NCBI GenBank assembly: GCA_020723925.1
Contig: DYHX01000002.1
Span: 1 to 54,577, forward strand
Reading direction: 5' to 3'
Length of the DNA stretch: 54,577 nt
Origin: Nitrospira japonica
Lineage (GTDB): Bacteria > Nitrospirota > Thermodesulfovibrionia > Thermodesulfovibrionales > DYHX01
The position numbers were made by a program, and so were the translations under genes. Positions 697 through 19,147 of the stretch are shown here, piece after piece; within the stretch, counting starts at the first letter, position 1; the number at the start of each line of letters is the position of its first letter. The notes under the pieces are model-generated. The model did no database searches. It was not told the DNA's origin and saw only the letters and a program-made list of their open reading frames with translations.

Positions 697-1368
697 ATGC
701 ATATACCTGATGGATATTTAGGGCCAATAACATATGGGAGTTTGTGGGCAGCCATTGCACCCATATGGTTTTATGCCTCTAAAAAAATAAAGGAGACGAT
801 GAAGGCATCTCAGGTACCATTCCTTGCCCTTGGCGCAGCCTTTAGTTTTGTTATCATGATGTTTAATGTGCCGATACCTGGTGGTGCGACAGGCCATGCA
901 ACTGGTGCTACTCTCATTGCGATATTTATAGGGCCATGGGCTGCAATAATGGCTGTATCCATTGCCCTCATCATTCAAGCTCTTATCTTTGGAGACGGCG
1001 GGATTACAGCTATAGGTGCAAATTGTTTTAATATAGGTTTTGCAGGGGTGCTTGTTGGTTATAGGATATACAGGCTGATTGCAGGGAAGTCGGATGTAAC
1101 ATCCAGAAAAAGGGTAATAGGAGCTGGGATAGGTGCATATATAGGTATCAACCTTGCTGCCTTTCTCACTGCCTTTGAACTCGGTATACAGACCGTGTTA
1201 CATGTAGGAGCGGATGGAAGGCCACTTTACAGCCCATTCCCTTTAAGCATCACTATACCTGCAATAATGTTAGAGCATATATTTCTTTTTGGAATTGTTG
1301 AGGCATTGGTTACTGTGCTTGTGCTTCTGTATATTCAGAAGTCACATCCAGAGTTGATAAGAGGGTAA
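697..1368 (+). CDS. cbiM: Cobalt/nickel ECF transporter substrate-capture component CbiM
   Basis: The N-terminus MHIPDGYL is the hallmark metal-binding N-terminus of CbiM/NikM. The protein is a 223-aa polytopic membrane protein. A GGAGG-like site (ggaatggagg) lies upstream. Confidence 0.9.
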   Translation: MHIPDGYLGPITYGSLWAAIAPIWFYASKKIKETMKASQVPFLALGAAFSFVIMMFNVPIPGGATGHATGATLIAIFIGPWAAIMAVSIALIIQALIFGDGGITAIGANCFNIGFAGVLVGYRIYRLIAGKSDVTSRKRVIGAGIGAYIGINLAAFLTAFELGIQTVLHVGADGRPLYSPFPLSITIPAIMLEHIFLFGIVEALVTVLVLLYIQKSHPELIRG

Positions 1369-1370
1369 CA

Positions 1371-1736
1371 ATGAAAAGTTCAAAGTTAAAAGTTAAAACT
1401 TTATGGTTTAAAAAATTGTGGATCGGAATTGGAATTTTGGTACTTCTATCTCCACTTGGCCTTATCATTCCTGATCTATTAAAGGCTGGCGGTGCATGGG
1501 GAGAGTGGGGGACAAATGAGATCGAAAAGGTTGCAGGCTATGTCCCTCACGGACTCAAAAAGCTATCGGAACTCTGGTCTGCTCTAATCCCTGATTATGC
1601 CTTTTCTGGATGGGATAGAGGGATAAAGTCATACATTGCATACATCATATCGGGTCTTATTGGTGTTGCAATAATTGTTGGAGTAACATATCTTTTTGCA
1701 AAGATTCTCAAAAGAGGTGAACGGGGAATGAATTAG
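1371..1736 (+). CDS. PDGLE-domain / CbiN-like small membrane component of the CbiMNQO transporter
   Basis: The gene starts 3 nt after cbiM. It has two terminal TM helices flanking AWGEWG...YVPHGLKKLSELW (a PDGLE-type segment). Position and size fit CbiN/PDGLE proteins. Confidence 0.7.
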   Translation: MKSSKLKVKTLWFKKLWIGIGILVLLSPLGLIIPDLLKAGGAWGEWGTNEIEKVAGYVPHGLKKLSELWSALIPDYAFSGWDRGIKSYIAYIISGLIGVAIIVGVTYLFAKILKRGERGMN

Positions 1737-2365: not shown

Positions 2366-4390
2366 ATGAAAAGATTTTCGTCATTTGTTATTACATCTCT
2401 ACTTTTAGCCTTTAGCCATTTGCCATTTGCCCTTAGCCTGTTTGCTGTTCCTGTCTTTGCAGAACAGAAGACCGCATCGCTTGAAGAGATCGTAGTAACC
2501 GCAACAAAAGTCGAAGAACCCAAAAAGGATGTTCCTGCATCTGTCCAAATAATCACTCAAGAAGATATTAAAAGCTCCACTGCAAAAAATGTAGGAGACC
2601 TGCTCTCAGAAGCCGGTATCGGACATGTCCACAAGTATCCAGGAGCATTAACAGGCAGAATCGGCATCAGGGGATTGGCCGGTGACGCCCATGACAGCTC
2701 ATTCAAAAATAAGATTCTCGTCCTTGTGAATGGAAGCCTTGCCGGAACATCCAATCTTGCATTGATTCCAGTTGATAACATCGAAAGGATAGAGATAGTA
2801 AAAGGGCCTGCCTCTGTGCTTTACGGTTCACAGGCTATGGGCGGTGTTATCAACATAATAACAAAGGAGGGTAAGGAAGACATCCACGGCTCTGCGGGAG
2901 TAGAAGCTGGCTCATGGAAGTTCTGGAAGACAAGTGCTGAACTGAATGGAAAGAAAGGGGCATTTGATTTTTACCTTACAGCGAGCCGTTCTGCAATGGA
3001 TGATTATAAGGCAAAAATTAAAGATAAAAACGGTAATGATTATGGAAAAAATACAGGCTACAACGATGAGGCGGTATCAGCCCGCTTCGGATATAGACTT
3101 TTTGATGGACATCATATCTCTGTTGGCCTGCAGCACTGGAAGGGATGGGAGATAGGCAACCCGAATGCGAGCTACAGCCCTGACTATGATGATCATACGT
3201 ATAAAGAGAGGAACGGTTTTGATATCGGATATAAGACAGAGACATTCAACGCAAAATATTATTTTGTCAAAAACAAAAGTGAAAACCATACGGTAACATC
3301 AGGCGCTATTACCAATACATACACTTCAGAAAAAGACACTCAGGGCATAAATGCTCAGAAGTCATTTCATATCAGTGACCACAGGGTAATAATCGGCGGT
3401 CAATGGGACAGGACAGAGGTTGATAGCTGGAGAAACACTGGAGCGCCGTATAATCCCAATTCAAGCTGGGACAGTTATGGCGCATTTGCAGAAGGCAGAT
3501 TAAGCCTTTTCAACAAAAAACTTCTTTTGAGCGCAGGGCTTCGTTATGACTATTTTGAAAACAGAATACTTTCAACGCCTGGCATCCCAAGCGTTAAACC
3601 GAGAAAAGAAGACCTTGATAATGTATCTGTAAGAGGAGGCCTCGTTTATAAGCTTACAGACAGCTTTAGTCTCAAAGGCAATATCGGCACAGCCTTCCGC
3701 GCGCCTGCTCCTGATGAGCTTGCAACGGATTATGTATCATCATGGGGGACACATTATATTGGAAATCCGAACTTAAAACCTGAGAAGAGCACATCCTATG
3801 ATGCAGGAGTTGAGTATTCAAAAGACCTTTTTAATGGTGGTTTAACGTTCTTTCATACGGACTTTAAAGACAAGATATTGAGCTATTATGACACGACCCT
3901 TTCTGCCCAGACCTTCAAGAATGTTGACGGCGCAACACTTCAGGGTATTGAAGCTAATTTCTCCTATGATGTGGGATTGGCTTCAGGTCTTAATATTTCC
4001 ATAGAGCCGTTTACAAATATCACTTATCACACAAGGTATTCAAGCAAAGATGACCTTGAAATAAGCAAATATGGGAAAATACTTCTTTACACTCCAAAGT
4101 GGACAGGGGCTTTCGGGATCAAGACTGGTCAGGAAAAATGGGAAGCACGACTTATTGCAAACTACACAGGTGATGAAAGGGTTCAGGATTGGGCACCTCC
4201 GTCAAATGGGAAGAATGTTGTAAAGAAGGGCGACTTCACAGTAGTGAATCTCAAGGGTTCCTATAAACCAATAAAGAATCTTGAAATCATGGCATCTGTA
4301 GAAAACCTCTTTGACAGGGCATATGAATATGTTCGGGGTTATCCGATGCCGGGGAGAACATTTGTAGCAGGGGTAAGGTGGATATTTTAG
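2366..4390 (+). CDS. btuB: TonB-dependent outer-membrane receptor, BtuB-like (riboswitch-controlled)
   Basis: The protein has a signal peptide and a TonB box (LEEIVVTATK). Plug motifs are IERIEIVKGPASVLYGSQAMGGVINIITK, and the C-terminus is aromatic (...GVRWIF). It sits directly downstream of a B12 riboswitch. The SD gggagg is at 2355-2360. Confidence 0.85.
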   Translation: MKRFSSFVITSLLLAFSHLPFALSLFAVPVFAEQKTASLEEIVVTATKVEEPKKDVPASVQIITQEDIKSSTAKNVGDLLSEAGIGHVHKYPGALTGRIGIRGLAGDAHDSSFKNKILVLVNGSLAGTSNLALIPVDNIERIEIVKGPASVLYGSQAMGGVINIITKEGKEDIHGSAGVEAGSWKFWKTSAELNGKKGAFDFYLTASRSAMDDYKAKIKDKNGNDYGKNTGYNDEAVSARFGYRLFDGHHISVGLQHWKGWEIGNPNASYSPDYDDHTYKERNGFDIGYKTETFNAKYYFVKNKSENHTVTSGAITNTYTSEKDTQGINAQKSFHISDHRVIIGGQWDRTEVDSWRNTGAPYNPNSSWDSYGAFAEGRLSLFNKKLLLSAGLRYDYFENRILSTPGIPSVKPRKEDLDNVSVRGGLVYKLTDSFSLKGNIGTAFRAPAPDELATDYVSSWGTHYIGNPNLKPEKSTSYDAGVEYSKDLFNGGLTFFHTDFKDKILSYYDTTLSAQTFKNVDGATLQGIEANFSYDVGLASGLNISIEPFTNITYHTRYSSKDDLEISKYGKILLYTPKWTGAFGIKTGQEKWEARLIANYTGDERVQDWAPPSNGKNVVKKGDFTVVNLKGSYKPIKNLEIMASVENLFDRAYEYVRGYPMPGRTFVAGVRWIF

Positions 4391-4534: not shown

Positions 4535-5359
4535 ATGAAGAAACGAGTTTTATGGATTTTAATTTTTCTATTGATTCCCTCAATTGTCATGGCAGGGAAT
4601 ATTCCCCTGCCTCAAGGCCTCAATGCAAAGGCATCTGTAATCAAGACAGAAAAAGATGGTCTCTGGGAAAAGAGCCTGATTGTGCAGTTTCAAGAAAAAA
4701 GGCGTGTCCTTTCTACAAATGACGGCTTTGTTGATACAATGGCTGTTGTTAATCACTCTGCCCATCCCGAATTATGGAAAAGGGTGTGTCAGGAAATGAA
4801 GACAGAGCATGAAGTTGGCGGAAAGGTGTATTCAAGAAAGATAAAGGAAAGGATTGCAAAAATGCTCGGTATAAGAAGCGAAGACATTGCACAGATGGGC
4901 ACTGCCGCAGATATGGATAACCTTGCAGTAGTAACAAGGACATATAAACCATTTGCTGTCACGGCACTTGTAACAGCAGGTGCAAAGACTAATGCTTTAA
5001 GAGCAGGTGTTGACGAGGGAACCCATATTGAGGGAGAAGAGCCAAAGGGTACAGTTAACATTCTTATTCTCACCAATGCAAGGCTTACAGATGGTGCAAT
5101 GGCAAGGGCGATAGTGACAGTAACAGAGGCAAAGACCGCAGCCTTTGAGGACTTAAGAGTCCCGAGCAGCTATACAAAAAGTGTTCAGGCAACAGGCACA
5201 GGAACTGACAGCGTCATCGTTGTTTCAGGAATATCCGGACCGAAGGTCACTTATACAGGCGGCCACAGCAGAATTGGCGGATTAATAGGAAAGGCGGTCT
5301 ATGAAGCAGTAGTTGAGGCGCTTGGGAAACAAAATGGTTTTAAAAAATTTGACAAATAG
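4535..5359 (+). CDS. cbiZ: CbiZ-family adenosylcobinamide amidohydrolase homolog with an N-terminal Sec signal peptide
   Basis: CbiZ-like core: TALVTAGAKTNALRAG...GTVNILILTNARLTDGAMARAIVTVTEAKTAAFEDLRV...ATGTGTDSVIVV. The N-terminus MKKRVLWILIFLLIPSIVMAG is a classical signal peptide. SD GGAGG lies 6 nt before the ATG. Confidence 0.75.
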   Translation: MKKRVLWILIFLLIPSIVMAGNIPLPQGLNAKASVIKTEKDGLWEKSLIVQFQEKRRVLSTNDGFVDTMAVVNHSAHPELWKRVCQEMKTEHEVGGKVYSRKIKERIAKMLGIRSEDIAQMGTAADMDNLAVVTRTYKPFAVTALVTAGAKTNALRAGVDEGTHIEGEEPKGTVNILILTNARLTDGAMARAIVTVTEAKTAAFEDLRVPSSYTKSVQATGTGTDSVIVVSGISGPKVTYTGGHSRIGGLIGKAVYEAVVEALGKQNGFKKFDK

Positions 5360-5564: not shown

Positions 5565-6269
5565 ATGGAAAAGACAATCTGTAAAAATGTAGCAACAGTT
5601 CAATTCTGGGACAGTTATGCAAAATGGTATAAGCTCTGGATGGAGCATAACGACTATCATCACAGGATCATTGAAACGCTTACCTCTATGGTCGAGCCGG
5701 GCTGGAGAGTTCTTGACATCGGCGCAGGAAACGGTGTCCTTTCTTTGCCTTTATGCGCTATTGGTTGTGAGGTGACGGCCATTGAACCTTCTGTTGGAAT
5801 GAGAAACCTTCTTTATGAAGATGCGTTCGGCAGAGGCATTGACTGGATTAATGTTGATGAGAGGAGATGGGAAGATGTTCCAAATTTTGCTCTGAACGAT
5901 TATGACCTCATTATGGCATGCAACAGTCTGCATCTGACAGAGATGGGCTTCAGACAGGCGCTTGAAAGGATATTCCATGCAAAACCGAAAAATGTCTTTG
6001 TCGTTACAGAACTCGGCGCTCCGGAGATAAAAGTTAAATGGCAATATGGAGATTACACAATGCTATTTACTAAATGCTATGAAACAGAGAGTTCTCTTGC
6101 CTATCACTCAACTGATGAGATTGTGGAATACTGGTCCTTTATAAAGGGCAGGAGACTCCATTCGTTTGAAATAGAAGGAATAATATCGAGGACTGTTTTT
6201 GAAGGCGATCATATGTGGCTAAAGGATACAGCCCGTGTAGGGATGTATTGGTGGGAGAGAAACACTTAA
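5565..6269 (+). CDS. Class I SAM-dependent methyltransferase
   Basis: Motif I is VLDIGAGNGVLSLPL. I placed the start at ATG 5565 (MEKTICKN..., SD ggagg 5 nt upstream) rather than at 5313. The upstream part of the tracked ORF runs through a terminator and hairpin repeats. Confidence 0.75.
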   Translation: MEKTICKNVATVQFWDSYAKWYKLWMEHNDYHHRIIETLTSMVEPGWRVLDIGAGNGVLSLPLCAIGCEVTAIEPSVGMRNLLYEDAFGRGIDWINVDERRWEDVPNFALNDYDLIMACNSLHLTEMGFRQALERIFHAKPKNVFVVTELGAPEIKVKWQYGDYTMLFTKCYETESSLAYHSTDEIVEYWSFIKGRRLHSFEIEGIISRTVFEGDHMWLKDTARVGMYWWERNT

Positions 6270-6318: not shown

Positions 6319-6361
6319 TCCTAAGAAAGGAGGTGACAGAAAAAATCTTAGGAGGTGTTTG

Positions 6362-8560
6362 ATGAGAATGGGTTTAATTGGTCTTATTAGTTTAATTGGC
6401 TGCATTGGTTTACTGACAGATATTACAACGGCATTGGGAGAAGAAAAAGAAACAAGGCTTGAAGAGATTGTGGTAACCGCCACAAGGACAGAAAAGGAAT
6501 TAGAAGCCGCGCCGGGCAGCGTGTCGGTAGTTACGAAAGAAGATATGGAAAAGAAAAATACGAAAACAGTTGATGAGGCATTAAACACCGTTTCAGGTGT
6601 CTTTGACAGGCGAGGCAAGGGGCTTATGGATACCCGCTCACAAGTTAGCATCAGGGGAATCTCGGGTCAGAGTAGAACCCTTATCCTTTTGGATGGAATG
6701 CCCCTCAACAGCGCATATACGGGTGATGTCCAGTGGGGCGGCCTTTCACCTGAAGATGCAGAGAGGATAGAGGTTGTGAAAGGCCCGTTTTCAAGCCTTT
6801 ACGGCGGATATGCTATGGGCGGTGTTGTAAACATTATCACAAAGATGCCTGAAAAGAGGGAATTTGTATTTAAGACAGGCTACGGCTCGGGTTTTGAGAG
6901 AGGCGAGGCTATGGATGATTTAAGAAAGTTTTATCTTTCTTATGGAGATAAATTTAAGGATAAATTAAGCCTGTTTGTAAGTTATGGATATAAGGCAACA
7001 AACGGCTATCCAAGTGATTTCAATGTCCAGTCTTCAAAACCAACAGCAGGAATTACAGGCTGGTCTTATACAACGGATAATCAGGGCAATACCCGTTACT
7101 TAATAGGCGACAGAGGCGACAACAGGTGGTGGGACGACAATATCACATTCAAGGCAGGGTATGATTTTTCTAAAACCACAAAGGTTAATCTATCTTTTAT
7201 CAGAACCCGGTATGAATACAATTATGATAATCCGCATACATATCTCAGGAATGCGTCAGGCAACGAGGTCTGGTCATACGGGACTGTGAAGGAATCTTCG
7301 TTCCTTTCAGGCTCTGGAGGCAGGATTCAGAACATCTACAACATAACCTCCGAAACGCAATTCTCTACGGTCAAGGCTAAGCTTTCCCTCGGACTCGTTG
7401 ATCAGGAAAATTCATGGTATGTAACGCCTGATTCAACTGCTACCCGCTCCGGCGGTACGGGCAAGGTCAGCGAAACGCCATCACAAAGCTATAATGCAGA
7501 TATTCAATTCACATTGCCTATTTTTGATAGGCATATTCTCACCTTCGGAGGCTCTTTCAGGCATGGCCGGGCAGATACAAAGGAGCATAATCTCGCAAAC
7601 TGGAAGGATGAGAAATCAAAGACCGCTTTAACATACCAATCAAAAGGCAAAGACATTACATACGCATCGTTTGTTCAGGATGAAATAATAATTCTTGATA
7701 ACCTCACCGCATACATCGGCTTCAGGCATGACTGGTGGGAGACATATGACGGCTATGCCAACGATGTGGGTAAGGCAGGATACCCCAAAAATTATGATTC
7801 ACGGAAGGCGTCATCTTTCAGCCCCAAGGCTGCCCTTGTTTATAAACCTTTTGAAAAGACGACTTTAAGGACATCTGTCGGAAAGGCATTCAGACCGCCG
7901 ACGGTTTATGACCTTTACAGGACATGGACATCATCATCCGGCGTCACATATGCGGGAAATCCTGATTTAAAGCCGGAGACAACGACCTCATGGGATATTG
8001 GGATTGAGCAGGGCTTATGGAAAGGTGCAAAGATTAGGGCAGCTTATTTTGAGAATTACATGAAAGACCTGATATATCGTAAAACAGTGTCTGCCACCCT
8101 TCAGGAGAATATCAATGCGGGAAAGGCTGAAAGCAAGGGCGTAGAGATCGAGGCTGAGCAGAGGTTTGATAAATGGCTCAGGCTCTTTGCCAATTTCACA
8201 TATACCGATGCAAAGATAAAGAAAAACGATGCAAAGCCTGCAACAGAAGGCAAGAGGTTGACTCAGGTGCCTGAGAGCATGTTCAACATTGGCGGCGATT
8301 TTGAAAAAGGTCCTTTGTCAGCATCCCTGACAGGCAGGTATGTAAGCAAACGTTATTCAAATGATGAGAATAAAGATGTAGTGAATAATGTATATACATC
8401 TTACGACCCTTATTTTGTTGCGGATGCAAAGGTCTCTTATAAACTTACAAAGTTTGCCACACTCTCTTTTTCTGTAGATAACATCTTTGACAGGGATTAT
8501 TTCGCCTATTACAAGGCACCAGGAAGGTCATGGTTTGGAGAGATAACATTAAGGTTTTAG
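6362..8560 (+). CDS. TonB-dependent outer-membrane receptor (second copy, 732 aa)
   Basis: TonB box LEEIVVTATR. Plug motif AERIEVVKGPFSSLYGGYAMGGVVNIITK. The C-terminus GEITLRF is aromatic. The ATG at 6362 follows SD aggagg (the track starts 3 nt earlier at a TTG). Confidence 0.85.
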   Translation: MRMGLIGLISLIGCIGLLTDITTALGEEKETRLEEIVVTATRTEKELEAAPGSVSVVTKEDMEKKNTKTVDEALNTVSGVFDRRGKGLMDTRSQVSIRGISGQSRTLILLDGMPLNSAYTGDVQWGGLSPEDAERIEVVKGPFSSLYGGYAMGGVVNIITKMPEKREFVFKTGYGSGFERGEAMDDLRKFYLSYGDKFKDKLSLFVSYGYKATNGYPSDFNVQSSKPTAGITGWSYTTDNQGNTRYLIGDRGDNRWWDDNITFKAGYDFSKTTKVNLSFIRTRYEYNYDNPHTYLRNASGNEVWSYGTVKESSFLSGSGGRIQNIYNITSETQFSTVKAKLSLGLVDQENSWYVTPDSTATRSGGTGKVSETPSQSYNADIQFTLPIFDRHILTFGGSFRHGRADTKEHNLANWKDEKSKTALTYQSKGKDITYASFVQDEIIILDNLTAYIGFRHDWWETYDGYANDVGKAGYPKNYDSRKASSFSPKAALVYKPFEKTTLRTSVGKAFRPPTVYDLYRTWTSSSGVTYAGNPDLKPETTTSWDIGIEQGLWKGAKIRAAYFENYMKDLIYRKTVSATLQENINAGKAESKGVEIEAEQRFDKWLRLFANFTYTDAKIKKNDAKPATEGKRLTQVPESMFNIGGDFEKGPLSASLTGRYVSKRYSNDENKDVVNNVYTSYDPYFVADAKVSYKLTKFATLSFSVDNIFDRDYFAYYKAPGRSWFGEITLRF

Positions 8561-9279
8561 GAGTAAAGGCAAGGGCATTGCCGTTGGTGGTTTCAATGTT
8601 GTTGCACATGGCGGTGATGGTTGTTTTTGCCTTTACAAATCAAGAAAAGGAGAAGATTTTTCATGTAGAGCTAATGATGCAGGATATGGGATATATGCAT
8701 CAACACCAAGTAAAACAGTCATATCGGACATCGTCTCGGCTTTCTCAGCCTGTCATAAGAGATATAGATTCTTCTCTGTCTCATGAGGAAAAGACAGAGA
8801 TAAAGACTGATAGCGTTAATACGATGGAAACATTGCCAACGGTAGAAGGTTCGAACGCTGATACTGTTTCAGCCAAATCCACAGTTTCTATTTTAACAAG
8901 CGGAGACAAGGCAGTGTCTGAAAAATCATTACTCAATGCAAAGGCAGGCGGTAATTCAGTCGCAAAGATTATAGGTCATGGGAATGCTGTTGTAGAAAGC
9001 GAATTCGGCTCTGCTAATGCCCCATCATTCTTAAAAAGGGTAATTCCTGAATATCCACGAGTGGCAAGGCGGCTTGGCAGAGAAGGGAGGGTAGTATTAA
9101 TGCTTCACATTAATAAACATGGGAAACTGCTTAATGTAGAAATTATTGAAAAGGCAGGGTACGGCTTTGATGAGGCAGCGATGGACGCTGTAAAGTCCTC
9201 ATCTTTTCAACCAGCAAGAGTAAACGACAAGCCTGTGGACTGCAAGGCAATATTGCCGATAAGCTTTAAACTGCAATAG
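8530..9279 (+). CDS. tonB: Energy transducer TonB
   Basis: One N-terminal TM helix (ALPLVVSMLLHMAVMVVFAF), a linker, then a TonB C-terminal domain PEYPRVARRLGREGRVVLMLHINKHGKLLNVEIIEKAGYGFDEAAMDAVKSSSFQPA. It overlaps the TBDR by 31 nt; the exact start is uncertain. Confidence 0.8.
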   Translation: MVWRDNIKVLGVKARALPLVVSMLLHMAVMVVFAFTNQEKEKIFHVELMMQDMGYMHQHQVKQSYRTSSRLSQPVIRDIDSSLSHEEKTEIKTDSVNTMETLPTVEGSNADTVSAKSTVSILTSGDKAVSEKSLLNAKAGGNSVAKIIGHGNAVVESEFGSANAPSFLKRVIPEYPRVARRLGREGRVVLMLHINKHGKLLNVEIIEKAGYGFDEAAMDAVKSSSFQPARVNDKPVDCKAILPISFKLQ

Positions 9280-9291
9280 AGGAGGACAAAT

Positions 9292-10059
9292 ATGGACTTA
9301 AATATTATATTGTGGATTGGCGGTATGCTCTTCAGCCTCAGCATATTTGCCATAAAAGTAGGCTTTGGTCTCGGCTTTAGCAGAATAAGATGGAAAGGCA
9401 TCTTTCTGACCCTTTCCATGTATCTTGCGCTGTTTGTCCTTATTGCAACGCTCTCAGAACAGTTGATCAAAATACTTGAGCCAGTATTGAGGAAAGGCCC
9501 TTATCTCCATGCTGCTATGGCATTAGGGATGATTGTATGGGGAATTCTCTTATTGAGAGCACAGAACAAAGGGCACAGAGGACAGACAAATTCAAGATTT
9601 AAAAATGAAAACTCACAAATCATTGACTCTGAACTCCCAACTCTGAACTCATTACTTCTGTTAGTTCCCTGTCCTATCTGCCTTACTGCAATGACATTCT
9701 CTGTATGGTCCGCATTAAATGTAGTTAAATTCCCCGCAGGGCTGGTTGGTCTGGGCTTAGGATTTGTTTTTATTTTGTTGTCGCTTACTGTTTATTTTTC
9801 CTTAAAACTCATAACTTTTAACTCATCACTTATAACTCAAAGAATCGGTCTGGGATTAAGCATGATGGCGATAGGGCTTTATTTCATTGCATCCTTGTTT
9901 ATTCCTGTAAAGATAGAGGAAGCGAAGGGGGTATACATGTCGTTTCTTGCAGAGAACGCTAACACTGCTTTAAATGACAGCATCGGAGTTTTTATTGTTC
10001 TTTTTGCAGCCATGTTAATTGGCTTTTTATTAAATAAGAGAACGGAGGTCAAAGAATGA
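9292..10059 (+). CDS. Polytopic membrane protein, DUF2162-type predicted transporter with an intramembrane CPIC motif
   Basis: The protein is 255 aa with about 7-8 TM helices. CPIC is at 9670-9681 inside a helix (LLLVPCPICLTAM). From memory, its pattern and its partners (MotA/ExbB-like, DUF2149-like, CobN) match the DUF2162 family; this was not verified by search. Confidence 0.6.
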   Translation: MDLNIILWIGGMLFSLSIFAIKVGFGLGFSRIRWKGIFLTLSMYLALFVLIATLSEQLIKILEPVLRKGPYLHAAMALGMIVWGILLLRAQNKGHRGQTNSRFKNENSQIIDSELPTLNSLLLLVPCPICLTAMTFSVWSALNVVKFPAGLVGLGLGFVFILLSLTVYFSLKLITFNSSLITQRIGLGLSMMAIGLYFIASLFIPVKIEEAKGVYMSFLAENANTALNDSIGVFIVLFAAMLIGFLLNKRTEVKE

Positions 10060-10670
10060 ATATCCTTGCAGGTCTTGAGACATTCCTGTATGTGATTTCA
10101 TCTGCACTTTTCTATCCTGTGGTGGCAGGGCTTGTTCTGCTTACATTCTGGATTGTTGTCTCTTTTGGTGGTTTTTTGAGGGAGCATATAGAGAGAAAAC
10201 AGGGAAACCCATCTGTATTGGGTAGATTTAAAAAAATCCTCGAATCGGAACTTTCAATTAATGCCGACAATACTGATATAAATCTGGAAAGGCGGCTGCA
10301 GGAAGCAGAGCTTGGACTTATCAAATCCCTTGATAAAATCAGATTTGCCATTCGTGTTGGTCCCGCCCTCGGCTTGATGGGAACACTAATTCCAATGGGC
10401 ATCGCACTTTCTGCCCTTGCACAGGGTGATATGCCGAAAATGGCCAGCAGCATGGTTACTGCCTTTACCACAACCGTTGTAGGACTTGCCTGCGGTGTGG
10501 CTGCATATTTGATGTCATTGGTGAAAGAAAAATGGGTAAGGGCTGATATTAACGAGATGGATTACCTCACAGAGCTAACGCTCCGAAATTCAAAATTAAA
10601 AATTCAAAATGCAACCATGGAGGAAAAAGATGAGATTTTTGAAGAGGCACAGACGCTTCGAAAGATATGA
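10056..10670 (+). CDS. MotA/TolQ/ExbB proton-channel family protein
   Basis: Three-TM topology with the family signature RVGPALGLMGTLIPMGIALSAL....TAFTTTVVGLACGVAAYL. Its start overlaps the previous stop as ATGA. Confidence 0.8.
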   Translation: MNILAGLETFLYVISSALFYPVVAGLVLLTFWIVVSFGGFLREHIERKQGNPSVLGRFKKILESELSINADNTDINLERRLQEAELGLIKSLDKIRFAIRVGPALGLMGTLIPMGIALSALAQGDMPKMASSMVTAFTTTVVGLACGVAAYLMSLVKEKWVRADINEMDYLTELTLRNSKLKIQNATMEEKDEIFEEAQTLRKI

Positions 10671-10968
10671 ACAGCCCCTTGAAGACCCAATTTCAGGGGT
10701 CGCAAATCTCTTTGACGCAAGCGTGGTTTTTATCGTGAGTATGATGATTGCCCTTTTCATGGCTTACAACATGCTCGATCTGCTTGACCCTAAATCGGAG
10801 GTCACGATCACAAAAAAGACCGCCGATGGAAAGATAGAGATAATCACAAAGAAAGGCAAGGAGATTAAGGCAAAAAAAGTGACCGATAAGAGATTAAGCG
10901 GTGAAGGCGAGAGGCTCGGAACAGCGTATCAATTAAAAGACGGGAGGGTTATTTATGTGCCAGAGTAA
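10630..10968 (+). CDS. DUF2149-type single-pass membrane protein (ExbD/TolR-like partner of the channel)
   Basis: MRFLKRHRRFE...GVANLFDASVVFIVSMMIALFMAY has an Asp at the helix entry, as in ExbD/TolR, followed by a small periplasmic beta-rich domain. The ATG at 10630 is preceded by ggagga (the track starts at 10609). Confidence 0.6.
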   Translation: MRFLKRHRRFERYEQPLEDPISGVANLFDASVVFIVSMMIALFMAYNMLDLLDPKSEVTITKKTADGKIEIITKKGKEIKAKKVTDKRLSGEGERLGTAYQLKDGRVIYVPE

Positions 10969-13900
10969 AGAAAATTCAAAAATTAAAAATCAAAATGTAA
11001 AATTAAGGTATTCCATAACTTTTATTTTTGCATTTTTCATTTTGCATTTCAGCATCGCCCATGCAGAGCCTTTGAAAATAAGCCTTTTGCTCGGAGACAC
11101 CCATTCAAGGACAGCCCTTGATGCAGTCAAGGCAATAGAAAAAGAATACCCTGATATAAAGGGAAAGATTGGCTTTCATGTCTATACGAGCAGAGGTATC
11201 AGGGAAAGGAAAGGTGAAGATATGGCTGTTGCATCCTCAAAGGTCGTTTTCATCCTCCTCATTATGGACAGACAGGGAGTTGAGCTGGTGAGACTGCATA
11301 TTGAAAAGGTGATAAAAAATGGTGGTAAGGTTTATGCAGTTGGTGGGATTTATAACAAAGAACACAAGGACATGGGGATAATAGATGATGAGGAGGTTAA
11401 GGCTTACTACAAAGAAAACGGCTTTGAGAATATAAAAAACATGATTCTGTTTGTGCTAAACAGAGATTTAGGGTTTAAGGTCTCATATAAAATGCCGGTT
11501 GCAGTCCCTGATTTTGGAATCTATATAAAACATGACAAAAGAGCTGTGGAGACTTATGATGAATTTTTAAAGTCTTACACACTTAACGCATCACGCATTA
11601 CGCATTACGATAAATGGATAGGGCTTGCCTTCAACAAAAGTTCCTTTGATTCCGACAATCTCAAGAATATAGACGCAGTAATTGAGAGCCTTGAAAGAGA
11701 AGGCTTTAATGTCCTGCCTGTCTATGGCTATCCACCCGAGAAGGCAATAGAGAAATACTTCTTTGATGAAAAAGGAAAAAGCAGGGTGAGATTTATCGTT
11801 GGACTCTCCATGAAGGTCGGTATAAATCCTAAGGCGCTGAATCCTGTCCTTGAGAGGCTCAATGTCCCTATTATCAATGCCATTACTCTTTACACCAAAT
11901 CAAAAGAGGAGTGGGAACAATCGCCTGCCGGCCTTGACATCTTTGAGAGGTCATGGCAAATAGCCCTGCCGGAGCTTGCAGGCATTATCCAGCCCACTGT
12001 CATTGCATCAAAGGAGAAGATGACTGATAAGGAGACCGGCATTGAATACATGGAGGAAAGACCGATACCGGAAAGGATAAGCAGGCTTACAGACAGGATT
12101 AAGGCATGGCTTAATCTTCAGGACAAACCAAACAAGGACAAAAAGATTGCAATCATCTATTACAATTATCCACCCGGCAAACAGAACATAGGCGCATCCT
12201 ATCTGAATGTGCTTCCTGAAAGTTTGTGGGAAATATTAAACAAGCTTAAGGCCGAGGGATATGACATAAGCAATCAGTCAGTGGTCAGCAATCAGGAAAT
12301 TAGTAAGGAGCAACTATTTAATAATATCCATAACTACGCAAGGAATATTGGCAATTGGGCTGCCGGAGAGATCGACAGGCTTGCAAAGAGTGGAAAGCCA
12401 ATACTGATTCCGATTGATACATATAAAAGATGGTTTGAGGAACTGCCGGAAGGGTTAAAGAAGGCTATCATAAAAAACTGGGGCAGGCCTGAAGATAATA
12501 AAGTCATGTCATGGACAGGCGCAAGCGGCACAAAATATATAATCATACCTGCTGTTCAATACGGAAATATTATTTTCACTCCGCAGCCTTCAAGGGGCTG
12601 GGAGCAGGATTCAATAAAGCTCTACCACGATGTCACTCTCGCACCGCACCATCAATATGTCGCCTTTTATTTATGGCTTAAAAAAGGATTTCAGGCGGAT
12701 GCTGTTGCGCATATCGGCACTCACGGCACGCATGAATGGCTCTCCGGTAAAGAGGTTGGATTTACGAATGAAGATCCTCCGGAGGCATTGATACAGGATT
12801 TGCCCAATATATATCCATACATTGTCGATGATGTTGGAGAAGGGCTTCAGGCAAAGAGGCGAGGCATGGCTGTAATCATCGACCATATGACACCGCCATT
12901 TGATAGGGCGGGAATGAATAAGGAATTGAAAGAGCTTGCAGCGCTTATTAACGACTACAATGCGGCTAAAGAGAAAAGCCCTTCACTTGCTGAGACAAAG
13001 CTTGATGATATAAATAAACTCGTAAAAAAGACAGGTATTCTTACAGACCTCAAACTCAAAGAAATTAAAAACCATGAAGAAATAGAGGAACTTGAGCATT
13101 ACATAAAAGAGATTTCAGAAAGACAGACTCCATTCGGACTTCACACCTTTGGCAAGACGCCTGATGGAAAATACAGAAAGAGCACAGCAGAGGCAATTCT
13201 ATCTATTGAAAAAGGGCTGTCAGATGAAGAACGGGGAAAAAGAATTGCTGATATGGAGCAAAGGATAATGCAATCAGGCAAGAGAGAACTTGACTCTTTT
13301 ATCGCAGCGCTTGCCGGCAAATACATCCCTGCTGGTCAGGGCAACGATCCGATTAGAAATCCTGATTCCTTACCAACGGGTAAAAATTTCTACTCCTTCG
13401 ATCCAACGAGAATACCATCAAAATCCACATATGAAATGGGTGTGAGGCTGGCAAAGGAACTCATAGAAGGCTATAAGCAAAGGCATGACATATATCCAGA
13501 CAAACTCACATTTAATCTCTGGGGTGTTGAAACCATAAGGCATGAAGGCGTGATGGACTCACAAATTATGTATCTCATGGGAATAAAGCCGAAATGGGAT
13601 GAAAGGGGAAGGGTAATAGGCATTGAGGCAATCCCCCGCTCTGAACTCGGAAGACCCCGCATTGATGTAACCATTGTCCCATCAGGGCTTTACAGGGATT
13701 TATTTTCCAATCTCATGGCACTGCTCGATAATGCTGTGAGCTTAGCAAAGGAACAGAATGAAGAAGACAATATCTTAAGGTCAAATGTCTTAAAGACCAA
13801 GAAGATGCTCATGGAAAAAGGTATTACAGAAGACAGGGCAGAAAAGCTTGCATCTGTAAGGCTATTCACCGTGCCTTCAGGCGCTTACGGAACAAACCTT

Positions 13901-14962
13901 GATAAGGTAATCCCAATGTCAAATACATGGGCTGATGAAAAACAGGTTGCCGATGTATATTTCATGAGGATGAGTTATATGTACGGGCAGGGGTTCTGGG
14001 GTGAAAAAATAGTGCGACAGAACGATAGTGCGACAGAGCGACAAGAAGATATAAGTCTTACCCTTTTAAAAACAGCCCTTTCAGGAACAAAGATGGCTGT
14101 TCACAGCCGTTCGGGTAATGTGTATGCAACCCTTGATAATGATGACTTCTTTCAATACCTTGGCGGTACTGCAATGGCGATACGTGCAGTTGATGGAAAG
14201 ACACCAGAGGTTTATGTCACGAATATGTCCAATCCCAAAATGCCGAAGCAGGAGACCCTTGAGAAATTCATGGGTAGGGAGATGAGGGCGAGGTATCTTA
14301 ATCCTGAGTGGATAAAGGCCATGATGAAGGAGGGCTATGCAGGCGCTCGTTTTGTTGATAAGGTTGTTGAGCATCTATGGGGATGGCAGGTTACAGTGCC
14401 GGAGGCAGTGGATGCAGCAAAGTGGAATGAGATGTATGAGACCTATGTCCTGGACAGGAACGGACTAAACATAAAAGAGATGTTCAAACAGTCAAAGAAC
14501 ATGTGGGCTTATCAATCCATTGTAGCGAGGATGCTTGAGACAGTGAGAAAGGACTATTGGAAACCTGATAAAAAAATAGTTGAGACCCTCGCAAAGGAAT
14601 ATGCAGAGAGCGTGAAAGAGGTTGGCCTTGCATGCTGCGACCACACATGCAATAATCCGTTGCTTACAAAATTTACCTCTTCTGTGCTGATGTCTGTGCC
14701 TGGATTGAAGGCTCAGGTGAATGGATTTATGAAGGCATTAAAAACAGTCCAGAGTCAAGAGTCAGGAGTCAAGAGTCAAAAAGACAAATCACTAACAAAA
14801 ACATCTGCACCAGACGGAAAAGGTAAAAAGGTAGAGGGCTACGAAATACAGGATATAAATGCATCTGGGGCATCATCCGTACCAATCCCGTGGCTATTCT
14901 TGCTCGGATTTTTAGTATTTTTAGGGCTGATAATGCTTGGATGGAGAAAGACAAGGACATAA
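10955..14962 (+). CDS. cobN: CobN/Mg-chelatase-H family protein (1335 aa) with an N-terminal signal peptide and a C-terminal membrane anchor, HmuS-like
   Basis: It has the length of the CobN family and I recognise CobN-like stretches throughout (e.g. AHIGTHGTHEWLSGKEVG, MAVIIDHMTPPF, GLHTFG, NPDSLPTGKNFYSFDP, NLWGVETIRHEG, VPSGLYRD). The N-terminus ...RYSITFIFAFFILHFSIAHA-EP is signal-like. The C-terminus is PIPWLFLLGFLVFLGLIMLGWRKTRT (14882-14959). Confidence 0.85.
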   Translation: MCQSKENSKIKNQNVKLRYSITFIFAFFILHFSIAHAEPLKISLLLGDTHSRTALDAVKAIEKEYPDIKGKIGFHVYTSRGIRERKGEDMAVASSKVVFILLIMDRQGVELVRLHIEKVIKNGGKVYAVGGIYNKEHKDMGIIDDEEVKAYYKENGFENIKNMILFVLNRDLGFKVSYKMPVAVPDFGIYIKHDKRAVETYDEFLKSYTLNASRITHYDKWIGLAFNKSSFDSDNLKNIDAVIESLEREGFNVLPVYGYPPEKAIEKYFFDEKGKSRVRFIVGLSMKVGINPKALNPVLERLNVPIINAITLYTKSKEEWEQSPAGLDIFERSWQIALPELAGIIQPTVIASKEKMTDKETGIEYMEERPIPERISRLTDRIKAWLNLQDKPNKDKKIAIIYYNYPPGKQNIGASYLNVLPESLWEILNKLKAEGYDISNQSVVSNQEISKEQLFNNIHNYARNIGNWAAGEIDRLAKSGKPILIPIDTYKRWFEELPEGLKKAIIKNWGRPEDNKVMSWTGASGTKYIIIPAVQYGNIIFTPQPSRGWEQDSIKLYHDVTLAPHHQYVAFYLWLKKGFQADAVAHIGTHGTHEWLSGKEVGFTNEDPPEALIQDLPNIYPYIVDDVGEGLQAKRRGMAVIIDHMTPPFDRAGMNKELKELAALINDYNAAKEKSPSLAETKLDDINKLVKKTGILTDLKLKEIKNHEEIEELEHYIKEISERQTPFGLHTFGKTPDGKYRKSTAEAILSIEKGLSDEERGKRIADMEQRIMQSGKRELDSFIAALAGKYIPAGQGNDPIRNPDSLPTGKNFYSFDPTRIPSKSTYEMGVRLAKELIEGYKQRHDIYPDKLTFNLWGVETIRHEGVMDSQIMYLMGIKPKWDERGRVIGIEAIPRSELGRPRIDVTIVPSGLYRDLFSNLMALLDNAVSLAKEQNEEDNILRSNVLKTKKMLMEKGITEDRAEKLASVRLFTVPSGAYGTNLDKVIPMSNTWADEKQVADVYFMRMSYMYGQGFWGEKIVRQNDSATERQEDISLTLLKTALSGTKMAVHSRSGNVYATLDNDDFFQYLGGTAMAIRAVDGKTPEVYVTNMSNPKMPKQETLEKFMGREMRARYLNPEWIKAMMKEGYAGARFVDKVVEHLWGWQVTVPEAVDAAKWNEMYETYVLDRNGLNIKEMFKQSKNMWAYQSIVARMLETVRKDYWKPDKKIVETLAKEYAESVKEVGLACCDHTCNNPLLTKFTSSVLMSVPGLKAQVNGFMKALKTVQSQESGVKSQKDKSLTKTSAPDGKGKKVEGYEIQDINASGASSVPIPWLFLLGFLVFLGLIMLGWRKTRT

Positions 14963-14980
14963 GTTGCTATTTTGCTGTTC

Positions 14981-15946
14981 ATGGGGTTAAATAAAAGGAT
15001 GGAAATTCCTGATTGGCTGAAACAGACAGAACACAGAATACAGAACACAGAATACAGAAAAACAAAAGAGAAGTTTCTTGATAAGACACTCAGCCATGTC
15101 GTCTCATTCACTGAAGATACGATGTTTAATGAAAGGGTTTCTGCAAAGAAAGGCCTTCTGCAGGGGATCGAACCCAGATTAAAGACAGCCTGCCTCCTCG
15201 GGTTCATTGTTGTTTTGAGTCTCCAGAAAACTATCGGAGGTATTGCTTTATTTTTGCTCATGTCTTTTTTTATGGCATTTGCATCTAAGGTGTCGTTTGC
15301 CCTGCTCTTGAAGAGGCTTATACCTGCCGCTGTGTTTACAGCATTCATAGCCATGCCTGCAACGTTGAATATAATTGTGAAGGGCGAGGCCCTATTAACG
15401 CTATATACCTTTGAAAAAACCTACAGCCTTGGCCCTATAGCCATTCCAGCAGAGGTATCGATAACAAGGCAGGGGTTGCTCAGTGCATTAACTCTGTTTT
15501 TGAGGGTTATTGCATCTGTCTCAATAGTTTTTCTTTTGACCCTGACAACACCACCAAACAGACTTATAAAGGCAGTCTCCTCTTTTATGCCAAGGGCATT
15601 GAAATCAATAGTCTCCATAAGCTACAGATACATCTTCTTCCTTGTTCGGGAGGTTGAGCAGTTTATAATGGGCTTTAAATCAAGAAATGTCTCATTGGGG
15701 TTCCCAAAAGGTCGTAAGACCTTTTGGGGTGCAGAGCAGAAATGGGTTGCATCAAGGGTAAGCCTTTTATTCTCGATCAGCCTGAGGCTGAGCAATGAGC
15801 TTGAGCGAGCTATGGAGTCACGGGGATACAAGACTGAAGATGATAGATTTCAGATGTCAGATTTCAGATTTTCGAGATATGATGCAGGCTGGATAATCTT
15901 TTGTATAATCTTTTCAGGAGCTATGATTTGGAAGTCTTTGGCGTAG
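14981..15946 (+). CDS. cbiQ: Cobalt ECF transporter T component CbiQ
   Basis: EcfT/CbiQ-type polytopic protein (…ITRQGLLSALTLFLRVIASVSIVFLLTLTTPPNRLIKA…ISYRYIFFLVREVEQFIMGFKSRN). The start is ambiguous among in-frame TTG 14972, ATG 14981 and ATG 14999. Confidence 0.8.
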   Translation: MGLNKRMEIPDWLKQTEHRIQNTEYRKTKEKFLDKTLSHVVSFTEDTMFNERVSAKKGLLQGIEPRLKTACLLGFIVVLSLQKTIGGIALFLLMSFFMAFASKVSFALLLKRLIPAAVFTAFIAMPATLNIIVKGEALLTLYTFEKTYSLGPIAIPAEVSITRQGLLSALTLFLRVIASVSIVFLLTLTTPPNRLIKAVSSFMPRALKSIVSISYRYIFFLVREVEQFIMGFKSRNVSLGFPKGRKTFWGAEQKWVASRVSLLFSISLRLSNELERAMESRGYKTEDDRFQMSDFRFSRYDAGWIIFCIIFSGAMIWKSLA

Positions 15947-17007
15947 ACAAAATATCTTACACCTACAAAGACGGCAAGAAAGCCCTTGATGAAGTCTCGT
16001 TTAATGTCCGAGAAGGAGAGAGCCTGACAATAATCGGGACAAATGGCTCAGGCAAATCAACACTCCTTTATCTTCTTGACGGTCTCCTGATGCCTGAATC
16101 AGGAAGCATAAAGATATTCGGCAAGGATTTAGACAATGGATTTCTGCCCGAGTTCAGAGAGCGGATATCTCTTTTATTCCAGAACCCTCAGGTCCAGCTC
16201 TTTTTATTGAGTGTCTGGGATGAATTGTGTTTCGGACCGTTACAGCTTGGACTTAATAAGGATGATATCAAAAAAAGATCAGAGGATATCCTTAAATTAT
16301 TAGGGATCGAACATCTGAGAGAGAGAGGCCCGTGGAATCTTAGCAGCGGAGAGATGAAAAAGGTCGCCCTCGGCACATGCCTGAGCACAAACGCCGATGT
16401 AATCCTTCTTGATGAGCCAACAACAGGACTCGATCCGAGGAGTCAGGTAGAGCTTGTTGATTTGATAATTGGCCTTCAAAAGGCTGGAAAGACCATAATC
16501 ACAGCAACCCATGACCTCGGAATCATTGAGGATATCTCTGACAGGACAATTGTTCTCGGAGAAGACCACAGGGTTCTTTTGGAAGGGAAGCCGTGGGATG
16601 TGATGGAGGACACAAAGGCACTTCTTCAGGCAAACCTCATCCACAAACATGCACACAGGCACTGCTGGTATGTGCATGAGCACAGCCATTTTGGAGAGCA
16701 CAAACATGAACATATATCAGCTACAACAGTCGGCAGTCTTCAGTCGATAGTCGATAGTCATGAAGAAAAAAATTTAGGAATAAAAGAGGAGAAATGTTTT
16801 GAGATGAGCGATCTGGATAAGCTTAAAAGGTTGCTTGAGCACTGGGTGGAGCACAATGTTGGGCATGCAAAGACCTACACCGAATGGGCTGAGAAGGCAG
16901 ATGCGATGGGCAAAAACAAGCTTGCATGGACATTAAAAGAGATTGCGGATGAGACAGAAAGGCTCAATCTGCTATTTAACAGGGCAATAGAAGCGACAAA
17001 TCTTTAA
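15928..17007 (+). CDS. cbiO: Cobalt ECF transporter ATPase CbiO with a His-rich linker and a C-terminal helical HWVEHN module
   Basis: Walker A GTNGSGKST, signature LSSGEMKKV, Walker B ILLDEPTTGLD, H-loop ATHD. These are followed by HKHAHRHCWYVHEHSHFGEHKHEH (16642-16713) and a 67-aa helical tail. TTG 15928 (MEVFGVDKISY) lies 7 nt after aggag; the track starts at TTG 15901. Confidence 0.85.
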   Translation: MEVFGVDKISYTYKDGKKALDEVSFNVREGESLTIIGTNGSGKSTLLYLLDGLLMPESGSIKIFGKDLDNGFLPEFRERISLLFQNPQVQLFLLSVWDELCFGPLQLGLNKDDIKKRSEDILKLLGIEHLRERGPWNLSSGEMKKVALGTCLSTNADVILLDEPTTGLDPRSQVELVDLIIGLQKAGKTIITATHDLGIIEDISDRTIVLGEDHRVLLEGKPWDVMEDTKALLQANLIHKHAHRHCWYVHEHSHFGEHKHEHISATTVGSLQSIVDSHEEKNLGIKEEKCFEMSDLDKLKRLLEHWVEHNVGHAKTYTEWAEKADAMGKNKLAWTLKEIADETERLNLLFNRAIEATNL

Positions 17008-19076: not shown

Positions 19077-19147
19077 AGGTCTCTTTCTAAAATTATTTTA
19101 TCTTAAAACATATCAAACTACAACCCCAATAATAATATCTCTAATTT

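Follow-up and report, generated by a model that had tools for sequence, protein, structure and literature searches.

A predicted membrane-tethered periplasmic CobN-like protein in a cobalamin-riboswitch operon of a Nitrospirota bacterium, and its conserved linkage to a DUF2162/ExbB-like/DUF2149 trio

What would a relative of the cobaltochelatase subunit CobN do outside the cytoplasm, in an operon controlled by vitamin B12? The question is raised by an open reading frame (ORF) on contig DYHX01000002.1 of Nitrospira japonica (assembly GCA_020723925.1), of which positions 1 to 54,577 were analysed; this whole stretch of 54.6 kb is called the window. A preliminary description had predicted the product, here named the CobN-like protein, to be exported and tail-anchored. 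We find that it is a member, predicted to be extracytoplasmic, of the class I chelatase superfamily (CobN/ChlH/HmuS). Judged from its sequence, it carries a signal for export, one anchor at the C-terminus and a conserved tail specific to its family, and its gene is accompanied by genes of a membrane-protein trio (DUF2162, ExbB-like, DUF2149) in bacteria and archaea. This architecture has already been published for relatives; the protein is an uncharacterised variant, not a new kind of system. The coordinates of all features are given in Table 1.

The start codon, ATG at position 10955, is credible. A Shine-Dalgarno sequence (GGGAGGG) lies 7 nucleotides (nt) upstream of it, the upstream in-frame stop is only 6 codons away, and the next methionine of the protein comes at about residue 90; the hydrophobic N-terminus is therefore translated. 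Both terminal sequences quoted in the preliminary description match the translation of the ORF exactly. The start sits inside the conserved end of the DUF2149 gene (TATGTGCCAGAGTAA), where the last codons of that gene (...YVPE and stop) and the first of the next (ATGTGCC...) share 14 nt (10955-10968). This overlap recurs across phyla: it is present in 21 of the 27 related loci with enough upstream sequence, is 14 nt long in most of them, and suggests translational coupling. The apparent conservation of the first residues of the CobN-like protein, M-C-R/Q-N/S (MCRN or MCQS), is due to this overlap of the genes. The DUF2149 ORF is listed at 119 residues and most homologs have 112; translation probably begins at the Met at 10630, which gives the 112-residue form.

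The N-terminus was assessed by rules, namely a positive n-region, an h-region of about 10-15 residues and small residues at positions -3 and -1. Residues 1-18 contain five Lys or Arg and one Asp or Glu (net charge +4) and are followed by an uncharged h+c run of 19 residues that ends A-H-A before E-P, with cleavage predicted after residue 37. Charge, h-region and -3/-1 residues all agree, by these rules only, with a Sec signal for signal peptidase I. In 100 analysable orthologs the layout largely recurs: the median length of the h+c run is 19 residues, 92% have an n-region with net positive charge, and positions -3/-1 are mostly A-x-A (AHA in 32, AYA in 15, AQA in 6, and others). The basic n-region, hydrophobic core and AHA site of the preliminary description are thus present by the rule check, and A-x-A is kept among orthologs. 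In an alignment of 116 orthologs the mean consensus fraction of the signal region is 0.27-0.34 and only A-x-A-E-P is conserved there, which is the pattern expected of a cleavable signal. We consider that the protein is probably exported by Sec and its signal cleaved after AHA at residue 37. Sec is favoured over twin-arginine export, since few orthologs show an RR-x-F-L-like n-region and this feature lacks conservation, and a lipoprotein signal was rejected because no Cys lies in or after the h-region. Elsewhere in the window, a 109-residue ORF on the minus strand (23507-23836) also has a signal-peptide-like N-terminus, ending AHA/AE.

The preliminary description had named orthologs lacking both terminal hydrophobic segments and starting at an internal Met as an observation that would speak against it. 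Among 119 full-length orthologs (61-84% identity), 106 keep both segments and 118 have the C-terminal helix; in the 13 without an N-terminal segment the gene call is shorter or partial. Among 126 full-length representatives of clusters formed at 50% identity, found with residues 136-1335 as query and 33-62% identical, 112 have the helix and 94 both segments. The window also holds genes that mark a diderm host (BamA, Skp, LpxA/D/I), besides other housekeeping genes (FabZ, a secretin with PilMNO, purine synthesis, NusB). The protein would accordingly adopt a type I topology, in which a chelatase-fold domain of about 1,260 residues faces the periplasm and is tethered to the inner membrane by linker, helix and basic tail.

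Signal layout, AxA site, positive-inside tail, diderm host and the published topology of HmuS and BtuS all speak for an exported, tail-anchored CobN-family protein. The topology itself is already known from these relatives, and ours is an uncharacterised copy of it. A 2018 study predicted that BtuS1 and BtuS2 of Bacteroides fragilis are exported and sit anchored at the periplasmic face of the membrane, and placed them in a third CobN-related family (PMC6460266). HmuS of B. thetaiotaomicron was shown in 2025 to be a membrane-associated, ATP-independent de-chelatase with predicted N- and C-terminal anchoring helices; a truncated soluble form without the membrane segments stalls after 1-2 turnovers (PMC12583661). 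HmuS of Porphyromonas gingivalis, when produced in E. coli, was found in the inner membrane, exposed to the periplasm, and its activity was stimulated by membranes (2026, PMC13227078). That the product is instead a cytoplasmic cobaltochelatase subunit, with terminal segments that are gene-calling artefacts, can practically be discounted: source databases that name orthologs do label them "cobaltochelatase subunit CobN", but the scores against the NCBIfam CobN/BchH equivalogs all stay below cutoff (NF004645, 961.5 against 1619; NF004644, 870.9 against 1248; TIGR02257, 665 against 822), the ribosome-binding site is strong with no alternative Met, both terminal segments are conserved, no AAA+ partner gene (CobS/CobT or ChlI/ChlD type) was found among the about 40 window ORFs scanned, and canonical CobN and ChlH have no such segments (PMC13227078).

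The C-terminus consists of a variable and a conserved part. The stretch before the helix, TVQSQESGVKSQKDKSLTKTSAPDGKGKK, contains 7 Lys, 5 Ser and 3 Gly; in the 116-ortholog alignment the linker has consensus fractions of mostly 0.2-0.7, lowest in its first half, where much of it is at 0.2-0.4. It is followed by a juxtamembrane element that is present in nearly all of 120 orthologs. The family tag reads VEGYEMQ...SSAPIPYLF...GWRRK, and its core, VEGYEMQ plus SSAPIPYLF, reaches consensus fractions of about 0.7-0.99, with lower values for the residues between. The conservation of the core is comparable to that of the catalytic body (0.75-0.84) and far above that of linker and signal peptide. Within P1310-T1335 a 19-residue stretch has a mean Kyte-Doolittle hydropathy of 2.44, and RKTRT follows. 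Sequence and orthologs therefore agree with the earlier observation that the last 26 residues form a hydrophobic helix plus a basic tail behind a Ser/Lys/Gly-rich linker.

The preliminary description had left the choice between a sorting tag of the PEP-CTERM/PGF-CTERM class and a simple tail anchor. With the former, the C-terminus would be removed by a dedicated sortase and the protein released or attached to the envelope, and the layout is indeed alike, since PEP-CTERM, PGF-CTERM, MYXO-CTERM and LPXTG signals share the tripartite order of short conserved motif, hydrophobic helix and basic tail. However, a scan of the tail against NCBIfam (E ≤ 10) returned sub-threshold matches only, with no hit to PEP-CTERM or PGF-CTERM. 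LPXTG_anchor reached 14-15.4 bits against a cutoff of 15.9 and covered only the helix/tail part of the model; MYXO-CTERM gave 10.2 against 20 on the window tail, and 10-13 against 16-20 with homolog tails included; JDVT-CTERM gave 14.5 against 27 and Heimdall-CTERM 13.4 against 24. With nine tails from diverse bacterial and archaeal homologs, all CTERM models likewise stayed below cutoff. A six-frame translation of the window contains the tag motif a single time, and 658 kb of related loci contain it 30 times, in each case at the C-terminus of a CobN-like protein; in the sequences covered it is hence confined to one protein family. Several homolog tails align with the end of the NCBIfam CobN-type model NF004645 (its last ~45 positions), and the tail is therefore an integral part of the CobN-like family. 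No gene for an exosortase, archaeosortase or rhombosortase was seen among the scanned ORFs. We therefore regard a sorting signal as highly improbable, and the simple tail anchor, with one conserved C-terminal helix and a positive-inside tail, is the alternative that held.

Which branch of the superfamily does the protein belong to? The score for Pfam PF02514 (Table 1), matches to HmuS, CobN and ChlH in the PDB (all E ≤ 1e-122) and the alignment of His-590, in GTHGTHEW, with His-538 of HmuS, for which a catalytic role is described (PMC12583661), place it in the CobN/ChlH/HmuS superfamily. The mean consensus fraction over residues 38-1250 is 0.77. Canonical CobN, ChlH and BchH (9uk9, 7c6o, 4zhj) share the PF02514 fold family with it, and its body motif LDNDDFFQYLGG corresponds to LDSDDYYQFEGG of CobN (9fpc), but these enzymes are cytoplasmic, soluble and driven by AAA+ proteins and adenosine triphosphate (CobS/T, ChlI/D), whereas the protein here has export and anchor segments.

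A closer case is HmuS, and the protein could be taken for an ordinary HmuS ortholog, that is, a periplasmic enzyme that de-chelates heme and so frees its iron. Among solved structures HmuS scores best (9d26, 498.8 bits, followed by CobN 9uk9 with 433 and ChlH with 415). Both proteins have terminal segments, a periplasm-facing body, the catalytic His (His-538/His-590) and a C-x4-C towards the end of the globular part. The membrane-anchored layout and the neighbours are alike (PMC12583661), as HmuS of B. thetaiotaomicron and P. gingivalis is also encoded next to a TonB-dependent receptor and the HmuT/U/V trio (membrane protein, MotA_ExbB, DUF2149), and the receptors of the window score highest, yet below cutoff, on heme-type models. 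The ligand positions differ, however. His-254 of HmuS site 1 is replaced by Val-288, and phmmer gives no alignable match to HmuS for the head domain (residues 38-150), the region of the site 1 ligand Met-79. In site 2, Asp-1064 stands in place of His-1209 and Gln-1067 in place of Glu-1212, and the HmuS motif LSLDHVYEFMGG was found only in clusters at 33-35% identity, which is how distant the HmuS-type clusters are from the CobN-like protein. Some 200 HmuS residues between 693 and 891, which hold a 120-residue Met-rich insertion, have no counterpart here, and the Met content of the CobN-like protein is 3.1%. Furthermore, the gene order is S-T-U-V in HmuS loci and T-U-V-S here, the long N-terminal anchor of HmuS contrasts with a cleavable-looking AxA signal, and the operon lies under a cobalamin riboswitch and within cbiMNQO, together with a CbiZ-like gene and in a Nitrospirota host (Thermodesulfovibrionales-like), rather than beside feoAB or hmuY. 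A HmuY gene is absent between the riboswitch and cbiO, where all ORFs of the operon were assigned to other families. With His-254, His-1209, Glu-1212 and the Met-rich insertion missing and a CobN-like body motif present, HmuS orthology was rejected, and an ordinary heme de-chelatase appears very unlikely.

We suggest that the protein belongs to a B12-regulated "BtuS-type" branch that is neither canonical CobN nor heme-specific HmuS. The BtuS family was defined by Rodionov in 2003, as cited in PMC6460266. B. fragilis has hmu-like operons that lack HmuY, contain two receptors and follow a cobalamin riboswitch, as is the case here, and which according to the authors may concern cobalamin (PMC10100974). 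These operons are mentioned there only in passing and belong to Bacteroides, whereas ours is from Nitrospirota and has relatives in other phyla; the likeness is drawn from published descriptions. The mature protein of 1,298 residues contains three cysteines in total, all of them in ACCDHTCNNP, just before the linker, where HmuS has C-x4-C. This motif, which is not discussed in the HmuS structure paper, could be a metal-binding or redox site near the membrane.

On the plus strand the window encodes, in this order, cbiM, a cbiN-like gene, the riboswitch, a receptor, a CbiZ-like protein, a methyltransferase, a second receptor, TonB, DUF2162, MotA/ExbB, DUF2149, the CobN-like protein, cbiQ and cbiO. 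From the riboswitch onward the genes are separated by short gaps or overlap, and the operon structure was deduced from this spacing; promoter and terminator scans of the operon were uninformative, as the counts equalled the shuffled expectation. The arrangement indicates that the CobN-like gene is under B12-riboswitch control. In 12 of 14 related loci scanned a cobalamin riboswitch also lies directly upstream of the module, and Trichlorobacter thiogenes has six matches in 24 kb, with tandem pairs directly upstream of the module. A second riboswitch before cbiM was not found in the window, even at E ≤ 0.1.

The cobalt importer genes are split by the ~13-kb block from the riboswitch through the CobN-like gene. 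Because cbiMNQO is contiguous, and just upstream of the riboswitch, in two related loci (L001 and L009), the module looks inserted within cbiMNQO here. CbiM/Q/O genes are found near the module in about nine other related loci. At one HmuS-type locus, feoAB and a flavodoxin gene stand beside the same arrangement, an iron parallel to the cobalt importer here. The related loci come from Nitrospirota, Thermodesulfobacteriota (Trichlorobacter thiogenes, Syntrophales), Desantisbacteria, a Methylacidiphilum metagenome-assembled genome and Accumulibacter, and retain the core of receptor, DUF2162, ExbB-like, DUF2149 and CobN-like genes; the receptor commonest beside the module is receptor 2. The clade of the CobN-like protein itself spans Nitrospirota, Thermodesulfobacteriota, Desantisbacteria, anammox Planctomycetota and other phyla.

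Characterised CbiZ is cytoplasmic. The CbiZ-like adenosylcobinamide amidohydrolase homolog of the window has a signal peptide (MKKRVLWILIFLLIPSIVMA before GN), and a signal-like N-terminus is present in five of the six CbiZ-like genes of related loci. Such exported CbiZ-like proteins point to a possible trimming of corrinoids in the periplasm. The methyltransferase of the operon (5313-6269), predicted to be S-adenosylmethionine-dependent, has no signal peptide and has homologs in three related loci.

Table 1. Features of the CobN-like gene and its operon; positions refer to the window, residues to the CobN-like protein.
Feature	Position	Strand	Residues	Basis
cbiM + cbiN-like, first half of cobalt energy-coupling factor (ECF) importer	697..1736	+		NCBIfam CbiM NF008873, 311 bits against cutoff 225
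Cobalamin riboswitch RF00174	2068..2277	+		69.5 bits against gathering score 31.5
TonB-dependent outer-membrane receptor 1	2366..4390	+		NCBIfam TonB-hemin and TonB-B12 types, all below cutoffs
CbiZ-like amidohydrolase with signal peptide, predicted periplasmic	4535..5359	+		Pfam CbiZ, E = 3.7e-53
TonB-dependent outer-membrane receptor 2	6359..8560	+		Pfam Plug and TonB_dep_Rec_b-barrel
TonB-family protein	8530..9279	+		Pfam TonB_C, E = 5e-21
DUF2162 polytopic membrane protein (HmuT counterpart)	9292..10059	+		Pfam DUF2162, E = 1.8e-60
MotA/TolQ/ExbB-family proton-channel protein (HmuU counterpart)	10056..10670	+		Pfam MotA_ExbB (PF01618), E = 3.6e-12, 46.6 bits against cutoff 22.9
DUF2149 gene (HmuV counterpart)	10609..10968	+		Pfam DUF2149, E = 4.7e-33
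CobN-like (BtuS/HmuS-related) ORF	10955..14962	+	1335 in total	Pfam CobN-Mg_chel (PF02514), 1078.5 bits against cutoff 24.5
Predicted Sec signal peptide, cleavage AHA/EP	10955..11065	+	1-37	Rule-based check and ortholog alignment
Predicted periplasmic chelatase-fold domain	11066..14743	+	38-1263	Pfam and PDB alignments
Val-288-Gly-Ile at the HmuS His-254-Gly-Arg heme-ligand site	11810..11830	+		Alignment to 9d26
GTHG motif, His-590 equivalent to the superfamily-wide catalytic His-538 of HmuS	12716..12739	+		PDB alignment
CobN-type motif LDNDDFFQYLGG	14132..14167	+		Alignments to 9d26 and 9fpc; motif distribution in cluster representatives
ACCDHTCNNP motif	14630..14659	+	1226-1235	~99% conserved among orthologs
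Ser/Lys/Gly-rich linker	14744..14830	+	1264-1292	Composition; weakly conserved
Juxtamembrane element VEGYE(I/M)Q...SS(V/A)PIP(W/Y)	14831..14893	+	1293-1313	Ortholog conservation
C-terminal transmembrane helix	14882..14944	+	P1310-W1330	Hydropathy; conserved G/F positions
Cytoplasmic basic tail RKTRT	14945..14959	+		Sequence
cbiQ + cbiO, second half of cobalt ECF importer, directly after the CobN-like gene	14972..17007	+		Pfam CbiQ, ABC_tran

Directly downstream of the operon lie two minus-strand ORFs (17070-20674) of 668 and 508 residues, whose products by eye resemble a GAF/GGDEF-type signalling protein and a sigma-54-type activator, respectively. Farther away the window encodes a DNA ligase of the ATP-dependent type, complete with its three ligase domains (34729-36456) and, nearby, an endonuclease V (36785-37558).

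The trio that precedes the CobN-like gene corresponds to HmuT, HmuU and HmuV; in P. gingivalis HmuU is a MotA/TolQ/ExbB protein and HmuV a DUF2149 protein (PMC11681262). DUF2162 has an invariant P-C-P-x-C (P126, C127, P128, C130; window 9667-9681) in a predicted helix, in bacterial and archaeal homologs. Its AlphaFold2 model (mean predicted local distance difference test, pLDDT, 64; predicted template-modelling score, pTM, 0.54) gave no usable match in a Foldseek search of the PDB (best E 0.41, TM-score 0.35). The PCPxC motif is reminiscent of the CPx motifs found in membrane proteins that transport metals. The ExbB-like protein is a channel subunit by its Pfam score (Table 1) and carries the conserved motif GPxLGLMGTLIPMG. 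DUF2149, which is 82-94% identical across phyla, has one N-terminal helix with an invariant Asp (D29) in GVANLFD, followed by a small periplasmic domain; in its AlphaFold2 model (mean pLDDT 57) the helix is the only confident part. The trio thus resembles the ExbB-ExbD-TonB, TolQ-TolR and MotA-MotB stators in its MotA_ExbB member and in the ExbD/TolR-like layout of DUF2149, and the single conserved tail helix of the CobN-like protein recalls the anchor of TonB. It differs in that DUF2149 has no detectable homology to ExbD/TolR (no Pfam ExbD match at E ≤ 10; hhalign probability <1% against E. coli ExbD and TolR sequences, although the Asp aligns with D25 of ExbD and D23 of TolR), that the third subunit, DUF2162 with its PCPxC, has no counterpart in the stators, and that the trio occurs in archaea.

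Do the ExbB-like and DUF2149 proteins merely energise the TonB and the receptors of the operon, with an independent, passively anchored CobN-like enzyme for which the tail serves purely as an anchor? Most bacterial loci do contain TonB with one or two receptors, this role is drawn for HmuU/HmuV in PMC12583661, and soluble HmuS is partly active alone. In the literature, HmuT/U/V are variously drawn as a receptor energiser or as an inner-membrane transporter (PMC12583661, PMC12094164). The distribution of the genes argues against a service to TonB. In the 27 loci with enough upstream sequence, the CobN-like gene has DUF2149 as a neighbour 21 times, the ExbB-like gene 24 times and DUF2162 22 times, and most of the apparent gaps are artefacts of ORF calling or assembly. 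The trio also flanks bacterial representatives at 35-43% identity, where DUF2149 again overlaps the CobN-like start, and it stands beside exported, C-terminally anchored CobN-like genes in Methanomethylovorans, ANME-2/Methanosarcinales and Methanosaeta. The Methanomethylovorans locus is archaeal by its eIF2-gamma, Spt4, Rpb7 and S24e genes. Neither a TonB nor a receptor gene was found at these three loci. Methanogens have no TonB and no outer membrane. As the trio flanks the CobN-like gene in such organisms, the conserved partner of the trio is the CobN-like protein and not TonB. Together with the conserved DUF2149/CobN-like overlap and a tail conserved far above linker or signal peptide, this makes a mere energiser of TonB quite unlikely. 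A Methanobrevibacter locus has no trio nearby and is uninformative. In the ANME-2/Methanosarcinales locus a single trio is followed by two or three exported CobN-like paralogs in tandem, and in Methanosaeta the CobN-like protein (1823 residues) is fused to pyrroloquinoline quinone (PQQ)-type beta-propeller repeats.

We conclude that the trio is tightly linked to the CobN-like gene across bacteria and archaea, probably by translational coupling. The preliminary description had proposed coupling to the adjacent proton channel; as a genetic association this is well supported, the gene linkage being very strong and independent of TonB, and as a mechanism energy coupling is a possibility. Many archaeal homologs have been flagged as unexplained (PMC12583661), and in our literature search (DUF2149/DUF2162; CobN with ExbB and methanogens) no publication connected CobN-like proteins with the archaeal trio.

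For the function of the system we moderately favour a periplasmic processing of cobalt tetrapyrroles that feeds CbiMNQO, with the CobN-like domain docked on the trio. When B12 is scarce, the riboswitch would open the operon and the TonB-dependent receptors would import a cobalt tetrapyrrole, that is, a corrinoid, whose side chain the exported CbiZ-like enzyme may trim. The CobN-like domain would then bind the macrocycle and remove or exchange its metal, like HmuS does with heme iron, and the CbiMNQO importer, whose genes surround the module, would take up the freed Co2+. The conserved tail helix would dock the enzyme on the co-translated DUF2162/ExbB-like/DUF2149 membrane complex, which may supply proton-motive work for turnover or move the product across the membrane. 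In line with a link to the trio, soluble HmuS without its membrane segments stops after 1-2 turnovers (PMC12583661), and the P. gingivalis enzyme is more active with membranes (PMC13227078). We infer that a cobalt tetrapyrrole serves as substrate and most likely loses its metal in the periplasm, that the Co2+ is passed to CbiMNQO and that the tail helix docks onto the trio.

Several points weigh against this proposal. With regard to the protein itself, cleavage of the signal is something we infer from the sequence, and authors on HmuS call the N-terminal segment a second anchor. The CobN-like DxDD motif suits a metal-inserting enzyme or a pure binding protein equally well. In B. fragilis, release of protoporphyrin from heme persisted in btuS1 btuS2 mutants (PMC6460266), and the enzymology is therefore debated even within the BtuS/HmuS family. 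With regard to the trio, homology of DUF2149 to ExbD is not demonstrated, the truncated soluble HmuS carries out its 1-2 turnovers without the trio (PMC12583661), and the operon has its own TonB, so the bacterial trio may just energise receptors. Finally, clustering with cbiMNQO could merely reflect a shared B12 regulon, and the destruction of a corrinoid in order to rebuild B12 seems wasteful.

The strongest rival to cobalt-tetrapyrrole processing is a role without any metal chemistry, in which the CobN-like protein is the membrane-tethered periplasmic binding subunit of a corrinoid importer driven by the proton-motive force, DUF2162 being the permease and the ExbB-like and DUF2149 proteins the motor. 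The strict linkage of the trio to the CobN-like gene, archaea included, is in line with this, no btuFCD was found among the scanned ORFs of the window, and for HmuS a role in handing off heme is considered in the P. gingivalis study (PMC13227078). However, conservation is strong at the catalytic His and in the CobN-type body motifs, the body having consensus fractions of 0.75-0.84, all characterised relatives are enzymes, and the DUF2162 model matches no known transporter fold. We therefore consider a pure binding subunit unlikely.

Going further than the processing of cobalt tetrapyrroles, one may ask whether the trio is a proton-driven motor that replaces the AAA+ ATPase (ChlI/ChlD, CobS/CobT). 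Such a motor would act through the C-terminal helix and drive, outside the cytoplasm, the removal or insertion of metal or the release of product; CCDHTC and PCPxC could relay the metal across the membrane, and the machine would be ancient, independent of TonB and common to bacteria and methanogens. We put this forward only tentatively, as a possibility with a good deal less than even prospects, and the replacement of AAA+ proteins by the ExbB-like/DUF2149 pair and the metal relay are both speculative. If it is true, HmuSTUV would be a specialised iron-handling case and the B12-riboswitch operon the cobalt-handling case of one machine.

The annotation "cobaltochelatase subunit CobN" implies a cytoplasmic enzyme of aerobic B12 synthesis, but the CobN-like protein described here fails every curated CobN threshold and appears to be built for use outside the cytoplasm. 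Within the exported branch, activity has been demonstrated only for HmuS of Bacteroidota, namely the de-chelation of heme, whereas the variant with a CobN-like motif and under B12-riboswitch control is widespread in anaerobes. The comparison with archaea indicates that the constant partner of the trio is a chelatase homolog and not TonB. Two testable ideas follow for this family: that bacteria may remove or exchange the cobalt of scavenged corrinoids within their periplasm, and that a proton-channel module, rather than an ATPase, may service a class I chelatase fold.

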